DNA from: a virus
Lineage: Duplodnaviria > Caudoviricetes
Direction: 5' to 3' (one strand)
IMG/VR virus record: IMGVR_UViG_3300032227_002079
Span: 1 to 47,984 of that record
DNA length: 47,984 bases
Position numbers and translations under genes: made by a program. The notes beneath the pieces were generated by a model, which saw nothing but the letters and a program-made list of their open reading frames with translations, did not search any database and had not been told where the DNA came from. Each line of letters starts with the position of its first letter. The stretch's first letter is position 1. Below are positions 24,987 through 32,045 of this stretch, in pieces.

Positions 24987-25736
24987 TCACCTTATATAAT
25001 TTAAAAAGTTTACAAGCAAATCTCCATACGCCCTCTTCCTGTCCAATAACGGTATCCCTCCGGGTATCTCTAATGTCACATTCGGTATACCACTCTTCTC
25101 AAAAAACTTCTCCATACTAGCATAATGCTTCGGCTTGCTAGACATACTAACTACCACTCCATTCTTAACCTTGTCTCCATACACCGTCTTGTTGCTTATA
25201 GAATCAAACTTCGTATGCAAAAAATCCTTAAACCACTTAATCACTCCACCAGAACAACCCTCGCTAGGATATAAATAAAAACCATCCGCATTGTCATCCT
25301 CATGCAAAGATAAAAGCATATCTGGAGCAAATTCTAATATCACTTCCTTTACACTCCTTACAGGCTCCTTGTCCTCTCTCCTGTTCCACACACGATTCAA
25401 ATCCCGATCCTTGCCATCCTCACGCTTACCATCCATCAATCCACTAGGATTCATCACCGGAATTAATAACAAATTATTCTTTAAATTTTTTATGTTTTTT
25501 CTATTGAAAAAATCTAATATGCCAAACGGTCCACCAGGCTCGTCACCATGCAAACCACTAATAACACATATCTTCTTGCCACCTGTATCCGGTGTCCTAC
25601 AACAAAAAATCTCGTCACCCTCAGAATCTTTCGACAAGACCTCAAAGGAACAATTGTTGTTCAAACAAACTTTTTCAAATTTGGATTTCAAACCATGAAA
25701 ATCATGCTTTTTTACTATAAATTCATATAAACGCAT
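24987..25736 (-). CDS. M14 metallocarboxypeptidase / succinylglutamate desuccinylase-like protein
   Basis: GLHGDEPGG, PVMNPSG, DLNR, LSLHED and TLE motifs. Confidence 0.85.
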   Translation of the reverse strand: MRLYEFIVKKHDFHGLKSKFEKVCLNNNCSFEVLSKDSEGDEIFCCRTPDTGGKKICVISGLHGDEPGGPFGILDFFNRKNIKNLKNNLLLIPVMNPSGLMDGKREDGKDRDLNRVWNRREDKEPVRSVKEVILEFAPDMLLSLHEDDNADGFYLYPSEGCSGGVIKWFKDFLHTKFDSISNKTVYGDKVKNGVVVSMSSKPKHYASMEKFFEKSGIPNVTLEIPGGIPLLDRKRAYGDLLVNFLNYIR

Positions 25737-25763
25737 ACTATATTTAGTAACACATCACAAATA

Positions 25764-26207
25764 TTAACAACATCCCTTGACACTACAACTATTATTAGTC
25801 ATACCACACTTGTCAGGAGCTAAACAAGCCGTACTCTTCTTCATAACCTCTAAACATAACCTGTCATCACTCACAGTAACACCAAACAATTCATACAAAC
25901 AAATAGTTCCCTCTTGTATCTCAAAATTAACTATATTGTTCTCGTCAATAAACTCAAGACCCTTCTCCAATATGCCCAATAACTTGCTAGCTTTCAAACG
26001 ATGATCAAAATCATCCGCTACCCATACCTGCATAGCACAATATTCTAACTTCCTACGCACTCCACCACAATCAACAAAATCCTTGCTCACATTCCCAATC
26101 TCTGTAATGTGAAAATTCTGAGGAACTATGTCCAACGGAGACTTCCTAATTATTAACTTCTTTTCACCAGAATCCCTCAAAATGTTAGTTAATTCATATA
26201 GTTTCAT
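25764..26207 (-). CDS. DUF6428-like Cys-rich protein
   Basis: FHITEIG...FVDCGG, QVWVADD..HRL...KL, T.CLAPDKCG...GCC. Confidence 0.75.
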   Translation of the reverse strand: MKLYELTNILRDSGEKKLIIRKSPLDIVPQNFHITEIGNVSKDFVDCGGVRRKLEYCAMQVWVADDFDHRLKASKLLGILEKGLEFIDENNIVNFEIQEGTICLYELFGVTVSDDRLCLEVMKKSTACLAPDKCGMTNNSCSVKGCC

Positions 26208-26227
26208 AATTACACTTCTCTTTGTAA

Positions 26228-26298
26228 AGCGGGTAACGAGATTCGGACTCGTACGAAAAGGATGGAAACCTATTATGCTACCGTTACATCATACCCGC
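26228..26298 (-). tRNA. tRNA-Gly (TCC)
   Basis: Acceptor GCGGGTA/TACCCGC plus T; anticodon loop TTTCCAT; T arm ACGAG-TCCGAAT-CTCGT; CCA not encoded. Confidence 0.85.
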
Positions 26299-26347
26299 AT
26301 AATCCTATTATAGTTGTATTAAGTTTTTTTTCCAACTATAATTCTAA

Positions 26348-26707
26348 ATGGAAATAGGATACGAAAACTTTAGACAAGAAAAAGTATGCAGAAATTGCAA
26401 TACATGTAAACCAATTGAAGAATTCCCACACTTCAGTACTAACCTAGCCGGAAGAAAAAATACCTGTAAAGAATGTACAAAAAACCTATTCTCGCTTAGA
26501 CAAAAACTTAAAGCAGAAAACCCTCCTCCTCCATCTGGTAATTGCCCCATATGTAATATGCATACCGAATCATGGATCCTCGACCATTGCCACTTCAAAA
26601 ATAAATTCAGAGGCTACATATGCAATAGCTGTAATCTAGGCATAGGAAGATTCAACGACGATGTCGAACTTCTAAAAAAAGCCATAGAATATTTGCTAAA
26701 AGAATAA
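26348..26707 (+). CDS. endonuclease VII-like (His-Me) protein with N-terminal Zn finger
   Basis: CPIC...LDHCH....RGYICNSCNLGIG.FNDD. Confidence 0.85.
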   Translation: MEIGYENFRQEKVCRNCNTCKPIEEFPHFSTNLAGRKNTCKECTKNLFSLRQKLKAENPPPPSGNCPICNMHTESWILDHCHFKNKFRGYICNSCNLGIGRFNDDVELLKKAIEYLLKE

Positions 26708-27071
26708 GTTATTTGTCAGATTCTATGCACGATTATCAAACGCAAACCCCCGCAAAATTTTTAAGATTTTGCGGGGGAATAAGTTATTTTTTGTCCTCGG
26801 AAAGGTATCCTAACGGAAGAAAGTTCTAAGAGCGAAATTCTATGCTAATAAGTTATTTTTGAGATTCTATGCACGATTATCAATCGCAGTCCTGAGAGAA
26901 AGAGCGAAATTCTATGCTAATAAGTTATTTTTGAGATTCTATGCACGATTATCAATCGCAGTCCTGAGAGAAAGAGCGAAATTCTATGCTAATAAGTTAT
27001 TTTCTGCCCACGAAAGGGCATCCTAACGGAAGAAACTTTTAGGAACTAAGTTCTATGCGAATAAGTTATTT
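26703..27071. repeat. array of six AATAAGTTATTT sites at 69-75 bp spacing with two unit types; candidate origin iterons
   Basis: Copies start at 26703, 26778, 26847, 26919, 26991 and 27060. Units 26847-26918 and 26919-26990 are identical. Confidence 0.9.
26747..26777. terminator. strong hairpin between convergent genes
   Basis: CCCCCGCAAAAT-ttttaag-ATTTTGCGGGGG, a perfect 12-bp stem. Confidence 0.6.
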
Positions 27072-27480
27072 GTTTTTATTTTTATAATAAGTTTCTAATT
27101 GCTTTATTTTTTTGCACTCTTTACAAATAGATGTTTTGCCATCTATTCTTGTATTGTCTATAGAAAAATTATCTATATCTTTTATTTCCTTACATTTATT
27201 ACATTGCTTTTTACCTTCACTAGCATAAGGATTTTCTTTTTGTAACGAAGGTTTTGGTCTGCTACCAGCAATAGAACCTCCTTCTCTTTCACAAATATAT
27301 CTTCCATTTCTGGCAATATTTTTATCGTATGTTAATCTAAGAGCTTCATGTTCTTCCTTGCAAAAGTCACAGAAAAATTTTACTTTATCAGTAGCAACAG
27401 TTTTTTTATAATATTTGTTTGATGACTTTCTGCTTTTTTCTTTTCTATCTTTAACATAATCTACACCATTTAAATTACTC
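27066..27480 (-). pseudogene. 3' half (Zn-finger part) of the endonuclease gene split by the IS element
   Basis: In frame with 28986..29533 once 27481..28985 is removed; CDFC..., CNKC...CKEC. Confidence 0.75.
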
Positions 27481-28985
27481 GTCAATAACCCCTAGTCAAT
27501 TTTTCGCTGCGCAAGCTCCGCTCAAATTGAACTAGGGGCTTGGTTTGATTTAACAAACCTTTAGCAGAAGATTGATGGATTGCTCCAATCCTTATTCTGC
27601 ATGGCGTAGTGACCACACCACTATTGAGTTTAGAGATTAAATCTCTATTCCCTGTACTTTTAATTCCAATTCCCAATGCGCCATTAACATCGGCATTCAG
27701 AATAATACCAGTAGAACTTTTAAAAAGCCCTCTTTTTATTCTTTTGCCTAGATATTTTTCTTGGTGGCACATAGGTTCATTGGCAAGATGATCACACTTA
27801 CTTGTATAAGCTTCTTGGATTGTTTGAAATCGAATTCCATAATATTCACATTTGGCTTTTAGTTTTTGGACAAATTTGCCAAAAGGAATTTGAGTGAAAT
27901 TCTGATTGTTTCTCTTTCCAAGATTACAACCATCTTGTGCTGTCCAACCTTCGCCTACACAAATATGACCAACTTTGTTGAGCAAGCAATATTGAACAAT
28001 TAAGTTGCAATATTGATTCATATACTCATTAAGCTGTCTGTCCCTTTTGTAGGATAGATTGGAAAGTCTTTGACTCCACTTTTTCTTTTGATGGTCAAGA
28101 ATGCTTTGCAAATGTGCTTTGGTTTTGTTGAAGAATCTGTTAATTGATTTGACTTCTTTCCCGTCTAATATAAACGAGAAGCCAGATTCCATGTCCAAGC
28201 ATGTTGCAAAGTTAGTGACACCAACATCAATTGCTAAAGTGTGGTCTTGGTTTAAATCATGTTTTTCTCCTTCAACTTGATAAACAAACTCAATTTCAAA
28301 AAACTTCGCATTATTCTTTGGAAGAATACGAACTTCTTTGATTTCTTTTCCAATTACATTCTTGGGAATTGGATATTTAAATTTCTTAAATCCAACTTGT
28401 TCTTGCATATCCTTTGGAACAGACAATACAAAATACTCTTTGTTTTGATTTTTTCTTATTGGAAAAATCAAAAGCGAATAACCATCTTTGTTTTTGTATC
28501 TTGGCAAGTTTGCTTTGCGATTATAGTTACCAGCTTTTTTCTTTTGCAGCAATCCAAAAAAGCTTCTAAAATCTCGTTCAACTATTTTCATAGTTTGTTG
28601 AGCAGGATCGGAAGGCATCGATTGATAACATTCTTTTGTTTTTAATACATCATATACTTTGTTGTAGTTTAGGAATTCACCACAATTAAAAAAGTGTTGT
28701 CTTGTTTGATAAAGTGTTTGGTTATAAAGGTCTTTAGATTTACGGCAAAGAGTCTTCAGGAAGAGATATTCTTCCTTGGTAATCTTCAGCCGATTCTTTT
28801 GAACTTTAAACATCATACAATTATATACGCACCAAATTAAAAAAGTTCATAAAAAAATATTGAAAATAATTTTTAGACTTAGTTTTTTAATTTGTTTCTG
28901 CATCTTGGTTTATACATATATTTTAAGGAGGGCGCATTCCTCCCCGACCCTAAAGAGGTCGGGGTTTCCTGCGCCGAAGACAGCT
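27481..28985 (-). mobile_element. non-autonomous IS200/IS605-family (IS1341-like, tnpB-only) element
   Basis: Left-end hairpin 28931-28975; right-end hairpin 27489-27538 followed by TTATTGAC; tnpB inside; no target duplication; excision restores the host ORF. Confidence 0.85.
27482..28816 (-). CDS. tnpB: RNA-guided endonuclease TnpB
   Basis: N-terminal LC..SK.LYN; RuvC motifs LAIDVG and NADVNGA; E.YTSK. Confidence 0.92.
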   Translation of the reverse strand: MMFKVQKNRLKITKEEYLFLKTLCRKSKDLYNQTLYQTRQHFFNCGEFLNYNKVYDVLKTKECYQSMPSDPAQQTMKIVERDFRSFFGLLQKKKAGNYNRKANLPRYKNKDGYSLLIFPIRKNQNKEYFVLSVPKDMQEQVGFKKFKYPIPKNVIGKEIKEVRILPKNNAKFFEIEFVYQVEGEKHDLNQDHTLAIDVGVTNFATCLDMESGFSFILDGKEVKSINRFFNKTKAHLQSILDHQKKKWSQRLSNLSYKRDRQLNEYMNQYCNLIVQYCLLNKVGHICVGEGWTAQDGCNLGKRNNQNFTQIPFGKFVQKLKAKCEYYGIRFQTIQEAYTSKCDHLANEPMCHQEKYLGKRIKRGLFKSSTGIILNADVNGALGIGIKSTGNRDLISKLNSGVVTTPCRIRIGAIHQSSAKGLLNQTKPLVQFERSLRSEKLTRGY

Positions 28986-29533
28986 ATGAATTCATCTGCC
29001 CATTTTGTAGCTTCATGAGGCGTTTTGAATCCAAGTTCTTTTTCTGTCCACACCTCGTATTGTAAATTGTTTTGATTACAATAATCTTGTCCATCTGATA
29101 ATTGTAGAGCTACCCTAGATTTTATTTTTTTATCTTTGCTATTAATCATTCCTTCAGGCTTTACTTCAATTATTTTATTGTTGTTTATGATAAATTCTGC
29201 ACATCTAGATCTTCCATTTATAACATATGTGTGACCATGATCATAGGTAACAACGCTGCTTTCTTCTTCAAGAATTAATATGGCTTTTAATTCGTAAGAC
29301 GATTGAAAAGGGACATTTTTGCCAATCTTTATGCTTGGATACAAACCCCGTCTTCTGCTTTTGTGAGGAGAAGCCTTTGCATTTTGCACAGCAGTTTTGT
29401 TAGATAAATTTTGTTTTAATTTTTGACCTTTTTTACTCTGCCATTTCTTTTTAGCAGCAGCAGACATATTTGCTCTGGCTTTGGCGCTTTTAGCCCACGG
29501 ATTGTTTTGCATACAGACTCCAAATTTAAACAC
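28986..29533 (-). pseudogene. 5' half of a TnsA-N-like PD-(D/E)xK putative homing endonuclease, interrupted by IS
   Basis: SSYE, IIEVKP and VWTEKEL motifs with a basic NUMOD-like N-terminus; the annotated ORF runs on into the IS left end. Confidence 0.7.
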
Positions 29534-29582
29534 TTCAATTTTGACTTTAGCACAAAATTTTAAAAAATCAATATCAAAAAAT

Positions 29583-29615
29583 AAAAAAAGAGCCCCGACC
29601 TTTCAGCCGGGGCTC
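29583..29615 (-). terminator. intrinsic terminator of the major capsid gene
   Basis: GAGCCCCGGC-TGAAAG-GTCGGGGCTC followed by TTTTTTT on the minus strand. Confidence 0.85.
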
Positions 29616-29646
29616 AAGTGATATCAGGTGATATCAATTGCTATGC

Positions 29647-31098
29647 CTAGACAACAAAATTAGCAATTGATAGACGGGCATAGAACTTAGCCCCCTCACG
29701 TAATAATTTTTTTCCATATCTAGTAAGTATTCCTTTGCGAGGACAAAAGCTTTCAGGATCTAGCACAACTGGTGTTTGTGTTAGAGGAACATATGGGCAG
29801 TAGAAATAACCGCTATCCATATAGCTATCACCCTTATATCCCATGAGAATCTGGTTGGTTGGGAATAGTGGGTCCTTGTAGAGGCGGTAGCGATTTGCTA
29901 CAGTGCCTACATACTGAACGCCTAGGCTGCTTGTGAAGGTTTCAGAAGGAGCAGGAGCGAAGCCAGCGGTAGCTGTTTCGAAGATTGAGGCGACTTCTGG
30001 GCTTGTGACCAAGAAGTTAGCACCGCCACGCAATGTCTTTCTGTGGATGACATTGGAGACTTCAACGATCTTAACATAGAGGGCTTCGTACTTTTCCTTG
30101 ATGGTATCACCGAGGGCGGTAGCGAGGTCCCAAGCAGCGACGGTGCCTGCGTTATTGCGGAGGTCGGTGAGGACTTCACGGTCAATTTCGAGGTTAATTT
30201 CTTGAGCTAGGATGCCGGTTAGTTCGGCTTCAGCGTCAAGGTTGTGTTGGCTGCGTAGGTCTTGTTGGGCTTCGTAGCTCCATACAGCCTTTAGCTTACG
30301 GGTTTTAGCAGCGATCTCTTCTGATTCAATAACTAGATTGATTTCAGGGAGGTCTTGGTTGCATTCCATGTTGTACTCGTAGGAGAGTACGGCGTAGCTA
30401 TTAGCGCCACCTGCGCCAGCGTTCCAAGCCAACTTGAGGTTTCCTGTATTTAGGTCAAGTGAGCTACCGGTAGCTACTGGGAAGGCAGCGGGAGCGCCGA
30501 TTAGGCTGAAGGTGAAGGTTCCGCTTGATGCTACGACGAATGTAGCGACAGCGACACCGTTGTAGTAAGAGGTTCCTGTTACGGTTCCGGCTAGAACGGG
30601 TGTGTGTTCTACTGAGCCGTAGTCAACGACAGCGGATGCTGCTGCTGGTAGTACTGGGCTTGTTTCGTTTTGGATGAACTGGCTGCTGTAGAAGATGCTT
30701 AGGTTAGCATCGCCGTTTGCAAGCTGTTGGAGTGAGTTAGCGTCATCTCCAGGGAATCCGCCGTTATTATCAGCACCACGGATATAGCCCTTATTGGAGC
30801 TGTAGCGGAAGCGGAGATAATAGACCAAGCCGGTTGGTCCGAGTAGTGGCTGGACGCTAACGATTTTGTTAGCGATTAGCTGTGGATAAATTCTGCGGAC
30901 AAGAGGAATAGAGATTCTCTTGAATTGTGCGACATCGCTAGAGTCTGTTGAAACTTCGTTGATTAGTCTCTGGTTCTCAAGGAGAACGGCAGTAGATGAG
31001 CGGACATAAGGATCTTCAATACCTTTGAGGATACCTGTCTTACTCCAACGGGTTTCAAGTTCTCTAGCTTCGTTTAGAAATCTAGCATTAGCGTTCAT
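29647..31098 (-). CDS. gp23: T4-like major capsid protein (gp23 family)
   Basis: AVLLENQ, LVRR, VQPL.GPTGL, AKTRKLKA.WS.E..QDL...H..DAEAEL, EINLEIDRE, GYFYCPYVPL, TRYG. Confidence 0.97.
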   Translation of the reverse strand: MNANARFLNEARELETRWSKTGILKGIEDPYVRSSTAVLLENQRLINEVSTDSSDVAQFKRISIPLVRRIYPQLIANKIVSVQPLLGPTGLVYYLRFRYSSNKGYIRGADNNGGFPGDDANSLQQLANGDANLSIFYSSQFIQNETSPVLPAAASAVVDYGSVEHTPVLAGTVTGTSYYNGVAVATFVVASSGTFTFSLIGAPAAFPVATGSSLDLNTGNLKLAWNAGAGGANSYAVLSYEYNMECNQDLPEINLVIESEEIAAKTRKLKAVWSYEAQQDLRSQHNLDAEAELTGILAQEINLEIDREVLTDLRNNAGTVAAWDLATALGDTIKEKYEALYVKIVEVSNVIHRKTLRGGANFLVTSPEVASIFETATAGFAPAPSETFTSSLGVQYVGTVANRYRLYKDPLFPTNQILMGYKGDSYMDSGYFYCPYVPLTQTPVVLDPESFCPRKGILTRYGKKLLREGAKFYARLSIANFVV

Positions 31099-31121
31099 AT
31101 TACAATACCTTTCGTTGTGAT

Positions 31122-32045
31122 TTAGTTAGTCTTCTTTACACCAGAAAGAACTAGAAGCTCGTTTACGACACCGTTTGTGTTATCGTTGAATTCAGCGATA
31201 ACTTGAACATTTTCGGTATCGGTGTGTCCTCTCCCACTTGCGTTCTTTGTCTTTGCAACTCTTGCATTCTGCTCAGCGATTAATTGAGCTTTTTTGGCAG
31301 GCTTAGCTAGAGCGGCTGTTTTAGCTGCTGGAGCTGGGATTCTGCTTTCGGTCATCATGGCAGCCTTCTTGGACTCATGTAGACGGGTATTGTCTGTTGA
31401 GAGTCTGATGTTTCTAGCTTCCATAATTCTTAGCTGACCTTTTAGCTCTTGGATAGCTTTTGAAGCTTCTTCGAGTTTCTTTGATGTTCCGAATGTTCTC
31501 TCTTCGTCGGAGAGGTAATCGGAAGCGATGTTAACGATCTTATCTAGAGCGACTTTGTGCTCGAGTAGTCTTGGATCGTTAATAAGGTCACGCTTGGCTT
31601 GTTCGTAGATTTCAGAGCCTTTGTGTTGTAGGAACTGATCAACTTTTTCTACGATGTAGTTTTTCATTTCAGCTAGTTTGCTGTCATATTCCTCGTAGAG
31701 GTTTGTTTCGACAGTAGCTTTGCTATTTTTCTCATTGACGAGCATTTGGTAGGCTTCTTCGTAACCTTCTTCTAGAGCGGTTTCGAATTCTTCCTTTTGG
31801 ACACCTAGGCGACTATTTAGGTCGTTGATAATTTCGTAAGCTTCTTGGTAGCCTTGGTAAGCTGTTTTTTCGGCTTCTGATAGTTCGCCGGAGAGTTGGC
31901 TGTAGGCTTCTTCAAGGTTCTTATTGAATTCGGCTTCCATTTCGGTTTTAGCGTCTTCGATCATTTCAGCGACTGCTGATGCGACTTCGTTGACTTGGTC
32001 GGATGGTAGCATCTTCTTAAGAGCTTCTGTGATTTTGTTTTCCAT
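31122..32045 (-). CDS. prohead core scaffolding protein (gp22-like)
   Basis: Acidic coiled coil located between protease and capsid genes. Confidence 0.8.
   Translation of the reverse strand: MENKITEALKKMLPSDQVNEVASAVAEMIEDAKTEMEAEFNKNLEEAYSQLSGELSEAEKTAYQGYQEAYEIINDLNSRLGVQKEEFETALEEGYEEAYQMLVNEKNSKATVETNLYEEYDSKLAEMKNYIVEKVDQFLQHKGSEIYEQAKRDLINDPRLLEHKVALDKIVNIASDYLSDEERTFGTSKKLEEASKAIQELKGQLRIMEARNIRLSTDNTRLHESKKAAMMTESRIPAPAAKTAALAKPAKKAQLIAEQNARVAKTKNASGRGHTDTENVQVIAEFNDNTNGVVNELLVLSGVKKTN

Follow-up and report, generated by a model that had tools for sequence, protein, structure and literature searches.

The window examined here, i.e., the whole stretch of DNA that was analyzed, is a viral sequence of 47,984 bp (Caudoviricetes; IMG/VR record IMGVR_UViG_3300032227_002079), a fragment of a gp23-type phage related to the giant phages of freshwater. 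Its capsid protein shares 76% identity with that of an uncultured phage of 595 kb, and at most 44% with those of other phages among the matches listed. Downstream of the capsid gene, a gene for a TnsA-like nuclease is interrupted by an element carrying tnpB, which is present in one copy in the record; the features of the locus are collected in Table 1. The element is a tnpB-only insertion sequence (IS) of the IS200/IS605 type (IS1341 subgroup), located directly after the motif TTCAT, without target duplication.

Table 1. Features of the interrupted nuclease locus, in positions of the window (TAM, target-adjacent motif; ORF, open reading frame).
Feature	Positions	Strand	Basis or remark
Whole insertion sequence, IS200/IS605 family, tnpB-only (IS1341-type), 1,505 bp	27481..28985	-	Excision joints and recurrent right end
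TTCAT, insertion target motif, predicted TAM	28986..28990	-	Precedes left ends of the family
Left end, non-coding (169 nt), composite hairpin ~28931-28975	28817..28985	-	DNA fold
tnpB ORF, 444 aa, RuvC D197, E289, D376	27482..28816	-	Pfam, PHROG, alignment A1
Predicted omega-RNA scaffold: three conserved stems 27543-27621, right-end hairpin ~27488-27539, terminal TTATTGAC	27481..27621	-	
Predicted 16-nt guide / target-matching flank GAGTAATTTAAATGGT	27465..27480	-	Directly abuts right end
N half of interrupted TnsA-like nuclease gene (ATG 29512, GTG 29533)	28986..29533	-	phrog_15427
C half of same nuclease gene (Cys-rich, zinc-ribbon-like)	27066..27480	-	21 viral relatives; phrog_1035
gp23-type major capsid gene, directly upstream	29647..31098	-	Pfam Gp23 4e-87

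Read along the minus strand, the host sequence ...GAATTCAT is followed by AGCTGTC..., starting at 28985, and the element finishes ...TTATTGAC at 27481, where the host sequence resumes with GAGTAATTTAAATGGT. Deletion of the element joins 29512/29533..28986 to 27480..27066 in frame, and the fused host ORF encodes 313 aa if read from the ATG and 320 aa if read from the GTG start, the codon at the junction being an ATG split between AT and G. An earlier note on this DNA, made from the letters alone, had claimed that removal of 1,505 bp would give such a fusion from 29533 with no target duplication, and had called the element tnpB-only; its coordinates were confirmed to the base. Both ends carry subterminal hairpins, not terminal inverted repeats: the left-end hairpin has a DNA fold of -17.5 kcal/mol (z -2.85) and the right-end DNA hairpin a z of -4.56. 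The tnpB ORF, a match to Pfam OrfB_IS605, lies between these ends and stops 1 nt short of the right end. A search for a Y1 TnpA (PF01797) gave no match in the 47,984-bp record, while control genomes were matched; because the record is a fragment, ~10% complete, tnpA may lie elsewhere in the phage. Comparison of 27000-29600 with GenBank phages by blastn gave a single irrelevant match of 88 nt.

An uninterrupted allele of this gene was found in nature. Of the 20 public runs listed for 26800-29700, every one that has its environment labeled is a freshwater or lake metagenome. Run X1, with 0.99 of the sampled words, is probably the source sample. Contigs of X2, X3, X4, and X5 were aligned to 25500-31200; such contigs give no allele ratios, and only joints and loose ends were counted, parts left uncovered (the element in X2, X3, and X5, the flanks in X4) not being taken as absence. 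Contigs of X2, X3, and X5 join 27480 directly to 28986, skipping 1,505 positions with no base that fits both sides. In the 455-bp contig of X3, the shorter side of the joint is 114 nt long and there are 0 mismatches; in the 670-bp contig of X2, it measures 92 nt, and the flank has 17 differences. These exact joints in other runs show that the predicted empty-site allele, which the earlier note had proposed to look for, exists in nature, and that the window and the X2 and X3 contigs represent the filled and empty states of one site in a natural phage population.

Further copies define the ends of the element. Contigs in X4 and X7 (X7 being from another study) match the element at 95-99% identity, lose the match exactly at 27481, and run on from there into two different flanks; thus, the same element lies at different sites, and the right-end boundary proposed earlier is one that recurs. 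X6 and X10 yielded internal pieces of the element only. On the left side, a 5,732-bp X7 contig matches 28961-28991 across the boundary, including ATTCAT, and then enters an unrelated flank (1 mismatch in 31 nt, which may fall anywhere in the match), so that this site is probably also preceded by TTCAT. The left end of the X4/X7 variant differs at 28946-28960, and its replacement stem CCCCTAGC...GCTAGGGG still pairs, as against CCCCGACC...GGTCGGGG in the window. At the protein level, there are TnpBs 96% (P0001) and 74% (P0002) identical to that of the window, and a cluster at 96% identity has 50 members.

A single-query TnpB search returned one viral locus and five metagenome loci at 58-61% identity, and none in genome contigs. 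Three of the five metagenome relatives (L025, L026, and L028) share the layout of subterminal hairpins: TTCAT stands 6-8 nt before a GCGGGCAGGAAACCCC...GGGAGGAATGCCCG hairpin in which the left-end outer stem is kept, with changes, and their right ends finish ...GGGTAATTGAC before unrelated flanks. Since their left ends are only ~180-210 nt from tnpB, there is no room for tnpA. To look at the motif without bias, viral contigs were scanned with the left-end hairpin core as the pattern and TTCAT left out of it, and TTCAT was present 9-13 nt upstream in all five loci recovered. Taken together, TTCAT precedes 9/9 sequence-verified left ends (eight relatives' loci and the window), which upholds the earlier claim of insertion 3' of this motif. 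The exact 22-nt right-end pattern had 0 matches in viral contigs, and a regular expression for the family ends found nothing meaningful in the loci of an alignment-based genome scan (80 loci at no more than 52% identity, mostly archaea and Firmicutes), its matches being inside coding sequence.

Some members of the family depart from this layout. L024 and L027 (the latter on the same contig as L023) lack the GC-rich hairpins; at L023/L027, a 61% identical tnpB at 1459-2781 of an 85-kb viral contig sits tightly between phage genes, and this may be a decayed or recruited copy. At L026 (1280-2821 and 2822-3720), a family member with 60% TnpB identity is nested in another TnpB-like gene. L191 (2192-3720) has TTCAT, the left-end hairpin core and, ~1.5 kb on, a right end ...GGGTTATTGAC, and an IscB-type gene (RRXRR 3e-64 and HNH), which runs on the opposite strand, takes the place of tnpB; L025, L026, L028, and L191 have in common the right end ...ATTGAC. 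Directly before the tnpB start, L024, L025, L026, and L028 have a short palindrome around TATATAA/TACATAA, whose arms differ but pair, and the corresponding place in the window (28817-28840) reads GTATATAAT. This palindrome could be a promoter or a regulatory hairpin.

The tnpB ORF matches OrfB_IS605 at 6e-19, Cas12f1-like_TNB at 9.5e-11, and PHROG 506 (‘transposase’) at 2.4e-44. In an alignment of 37 TnpB sequences (A1), the RuvC positions D197 and D376 are present in 37/37 and E289 in 27/37, the window included, so that by its sequence the window TnpB is intact, with the D-E-D residues. The other 10 of the 37 have Q, K, C, or H at position 289, the RuvC-II glutamate, and nuclease-dead members may thus exist in the clade. 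The A1 profile matches Cas12f structures (8j3r, 9.6e-12) and a TnpB structure (8iaz, 9e-6), with D197, E289, and D376 aligned to the Cas12f motifs IDLG, EDL, and NADxNAA. TnpB relatives from Campylobacter and Helicobacter are only ~35-37% identical to that of the window.

The last ~140 nt of the element contain four stem-loops (RNA fold -60 kcal/mol, z -5.67, single sequence). RNAalifold analysis of six family members predicted that the first three stems contain 23 pairs; compensatory changes occur in 11 of these, despite the overlap with protein-coding sequence. A structure of this sort, spanning the 3' end of tnpB and the right end, is expected of a guide (omega) RNA, and we predict such an RNA here. 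With the guide length taken as 16 nt by analogy with other TnpBs, the 16-nt flank has no other match at up to 3 mismatches within the window. In the filled allele this guide-matching flank comes after ATTGAC, and in the empty allele it comes after TTCAT.

The gene that receives the element is known from uninterrupted homologues. A query with the C half found 21 viral loci at 47-58% identity, and in 20 of them (11 distinct proteins) both halves lie in one ORF, while the short ORF of the 21st (L020) is limited to the C part. Alignment A4, which sets the two halves of the window's gene against 18 homologues, shows the end of the N half and the start of the C half in adjacent columns with the junction codon between them; the spacing is identical in 18/18 homologues, as it should be if the element has split one gene. 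A search for related loci with the N half alone gave 35 pattern matches, 0 of which were confirmed. The N half matches phrog_15427 (endonuclease, 9.3e-8) and lines up with the PD-(D/E)XK region of the homologues, and the C half matches phrog_1035 (1.8e-11) and corresponds to a Cys-rich C-terminal domain. Tn7_TnsA-like_N was detected in 16/20 A4 rows at E<=0.01, the window's own N half giving no match, and the host-gene profile matches TnsA structures at 2e-4 and 0.013; matches of this profile to ubiquitin were disregarded as summed weak repeats. In the catalytic pattern (E...D...ExK), SYE and EVK are present, and the window has E where at least 90% of A4 rows have D. The insertion cuts the nuclease after its PD-(D/E)XK part, off from the Cys-rich domain, and the gene is probably disabled. 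Some homologues carry additional N-terminal parts, Mom-like GNAT (1e-9) or, in one homologue, NUMOD3 (L004 2888-4411, L017 2768-4402, L018 2855-4366), so that a Mom-like domain is found fused to a TnsA-like nuclease.

The host gene starts 114-135 bp downstream of gp23, which agrees with the earlier placement of the element just downstream of the capsid gene. Among 80 gp23 loci, 45 have at least 2.5 kb of sequence downstream of gp23, and in this set, which was not dereplicated, 22/45 carry a nuclease homologue after gp23 and 23/45 do not. At the closest locus (L049, gp23 90% identical), window positions 29556-27078 are cleanly missing, with flanks that align at 85% and 96%. The host gene also diverges much faster than gp23. 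Its TnsA-like PD-(D/E)XK family, the NUMOD3 of one homologue and its presence or absence at a fixed site next to gp23 match the homing-endonuclease-like character that the earlier note had ascribed to it; judged by sequence, it behaves like a free-standing homing endonuclease gene, with a predicted activity.

Several further features lie in this region. Just 3' of the interrupted gene are 72-nt tandem repeats (26684-27072; two identical copies and partial ones), and this block is 96% identical in L049, a locus that has no nuclease gene. A short segment from the 3' end of gp23 recurs in inverted orientation, so that the nuclease gene as a whole is flanked on both sides (26789-26814 and 29723-29748; 26 nt, 85% complementary). 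A second homing-endonuclease-like gene, of the Endonuclease VII/HNH type (Pfam 1.5e-14), lies at 26348-26707 on the plus strand, adjoined by tRNA-Gly(UCC) at 26228-26298 on the minus strand, and L049 has a different ORF there. The stretch following gp23 resembles a hot spot for homing-endonuclease-like genes.

For the origin and upkeep of this arrangement, we consider the following mechanism likely: a tnpB-only IS entered the TnsA-like nuclease gene after TTCAT, its TnpB, with a guide RNA formed from the right end and flank, cuts the uninterrupted allele, and the element is copied in by recombination. By analogy with IS608, ISDra2, and ISGst, a Y1 TnpA supplied in trans, by the host cell or another element, would have moved the element as single-stranded DNA, and the target motif of TnpA would also be the TAM of TnpB. 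The guide RNA would read from the right end into the flank, with ~16 nt of flank as guide, and the TnpB-RNA complex would cut the IS-free allele at TTCAT followed by GAGTAATTTAAATGGT (27480-27465). The filled allele would be spared, with its guide-matching DNA placed after ATTGAC and not TTCAT. Recombination with a filled genome would then restore or spread the element. In a phage, the targets would be IS-free genomes in the same cell (through co-infection or in the replication pool), and cutting them would amount to ‘non-restorative’ homing, besides re-installation of the element after excision. Passages of PMC10055086 describe TnpA and TnpB as recognizing the same TAM and TnpB as cutting scarless donor joints, and state that most tnpB elements have no tnpA and need TnpA in trans; parts of the review PMC13565253 treat the IS1341 group, and homing into co-infecting phages as a theoretical case.

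A number of observations weigh against this mechanism. Cleavage by TnpB, its preference for TTCAT, expression of the RNA, homing, and activity of the host endonuclease are predictions from sequence and analogy. No source of TnpA was found by the PF01797 search of the record or in genome contigs. The inner stem of the left end in the window is of the CCCCGACC type and the stem of the right end is of the CCCCTAGT type, with matching stems in the X4/X7 copies, and such unlike stems could affect recognition by one TnpA. In addition, a 2,517-bp X7 contig has a left-end hairpin of the window type (28935-28971) by itself, between unrelated flanks; the mismatched stems and the lone hairpin suggest an exchange of ends between family members, or hairpin-only derivatives. 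The TnpB itself has a non-canonical zinc-finger region (C341, H343, C350, and H351, as compared with CxxC...CxxC) that is poorly conserved in the clade, and a phmmer search of the PDB with its single sequence gave 0 matches, so no experimentally studied TnpB is close. A sigma-70 promoter scan found 8 sites, not above the 9.3 expected from shuffles. With regard to the alleles, the only filled junctions were those of the window itself and of run X1, and the two strong empty-site contigs (X2 and X3) are from the same study as X1, and so represent polymorphism within one population, not independent confirmation; the joint in X5, from another study, is weak, with just 19 nt on its shorter side.

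The best surviving alternative, which we think unlikely, is that the element is a passenger only, moved into, or out of, the phage genome by a host-encoded TnpA, so that TnpB and its RNA have no role in its spread and the polymorphism reflects recent transposition or precise excision. Excision by TnpA alone gives the same scarless joint, according to passages of PMC10055086, and the non-canonical zinc finger and the relatives without the RuvC-II glutamate, as inactive members of the clade, would fit a passenger, as would the purely predicted status of TnpB expression and cleavage. Conversely, the tnpB ORF of the window has been kept intact with its D-E-D residues, the pairing of the RNA stems has been kept by compensatory changes, and near-identical copies at several sites and in several studies suggest an element that is currently successful. 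Far less probable is the recruitment of TnpB by the phage, as a weapon against competitors or a regulator of transcription, with mobility lost. The hairpin-less tnpB of L023/L027 between its phage genes speaks for it, as do the TnpB genes present in 43 GenBank phage records, but the copy in the window has both ends complete and typical of the family, a natural empty site is known for it, copies occur at other sites, and it disrupts a gene where a recruited gene would occupy an intergenic slot.

Two readings were rejected, and we give each of them next to no weight. The combination of group I introns with IS200/IS605 tnpB modules, as described in parts of PMC4227781 and PMC10690162, would allow an IStron-like or self-splicing element that leaves the nuclease gene functional at the RNA level, but Rfam gave no family match, group I introns included, over the whole window at gathering thresholds or over 27300-29200 at E<=1, and a ribozyme would have no space between a left non-coding end of only 169 nt and a tnpB that runs to 1 nt from the right end. 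As for a repeat mis-assembled into the phage contig, to which the recurrence of the element across metagenomes and the scarcity of filled junctions might point, the flanks belong to a single gene, whose halves are parted in frame immediately behind TTCAT and exactly at the family right end, which would not arise from a chimera.

Among known systems, the TnpB elements of the ISGst2-5 type (Meers et al., PMC10055086) and of the ISDra2 type have several traits in common with the window element. Their ends are hairpins and carry no inverted repeats, they insert 3' of a motif of 5 nt with no duplication and leave a scarless donor joint, their tnpB has RuvC D-E-D, and most copies lack tnpA; a structured RNA that spans the 3' end of tnpB and the right end, with the flank as guide, is predicted for the window element as well. 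The window element differs in its motif (TTCAT), its right end (...ATTGAC) and its non-canonical zinc finger, and its TnpB is distant, a profile being needed to reach the solved Cas12f and TnpB structures; moreover, it resides in a phage genome of virulent type (gp23), in which the ‘sister chromosome’ is another phage genome. IStrons likewise have a tnpB module that interrupts a gene, and differ by the ribozyme, for which the window element has neither a detectable match nor the space.

In phages, tnpB-only elements of the IS200/IS605 family have already been described, as ISCaje1-3 in the T4-like Campylobacter phages CP220 and CPt10, with isoforms at different places in related phages; PMC2853527, in the parts that bear on them, predates RNA-guided function and does not define an empty-site allele, a TAM, or a guide. 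The window element is an unusually well-delimited example of the same kind. The interrupted nuclease gene can be compared with the free-standing homing endonuclease genes seg and mob of T-even phages (PMC13565253), in that it lies between conserved genes by gp23, is present in some relatives and cleanly missing from others, and diverges much faster than gp23. It differs from them in having a probable TnsA-like PD-(D/E)XK fold and a Cys-rich C-terminal domain, not GIY-YIG or HNH, and in the Mom-like GNAT or NUMOD3 N-terminal parts of some of its homologues.

The 444-aa TnpB is a compact protein from an unstudied clade, with its own form of the zinc-finger region, and a single type of transposon ends (TTCAT ... 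ATTGAC) encloses TnpB in several viral contigs and IscB in one other. TnpB-mediated homing has already been shown with plasmids and bacterial chromosomes; for spread between co-infecting phages, a limited full-text search found no paper beyond PMC13565253. The locus provides a defined natural test case: the filled and the empty allele are known exactly and come from the same lake samples, and a TAM (TTCAT) and a 16-nt guide can be predicted. Tentatively, and as a possibility that we would sooner doubt than assert, the element may be an RNA-guided gene drive in a natural population of giant freshwater phages, in which TnpB would cut and convert genomes with an intact nuclease gene during co-infection, so that an RNA-guided selfish element would spread by destroying a protein-guided one, dragging the capsid-gene region along with it.

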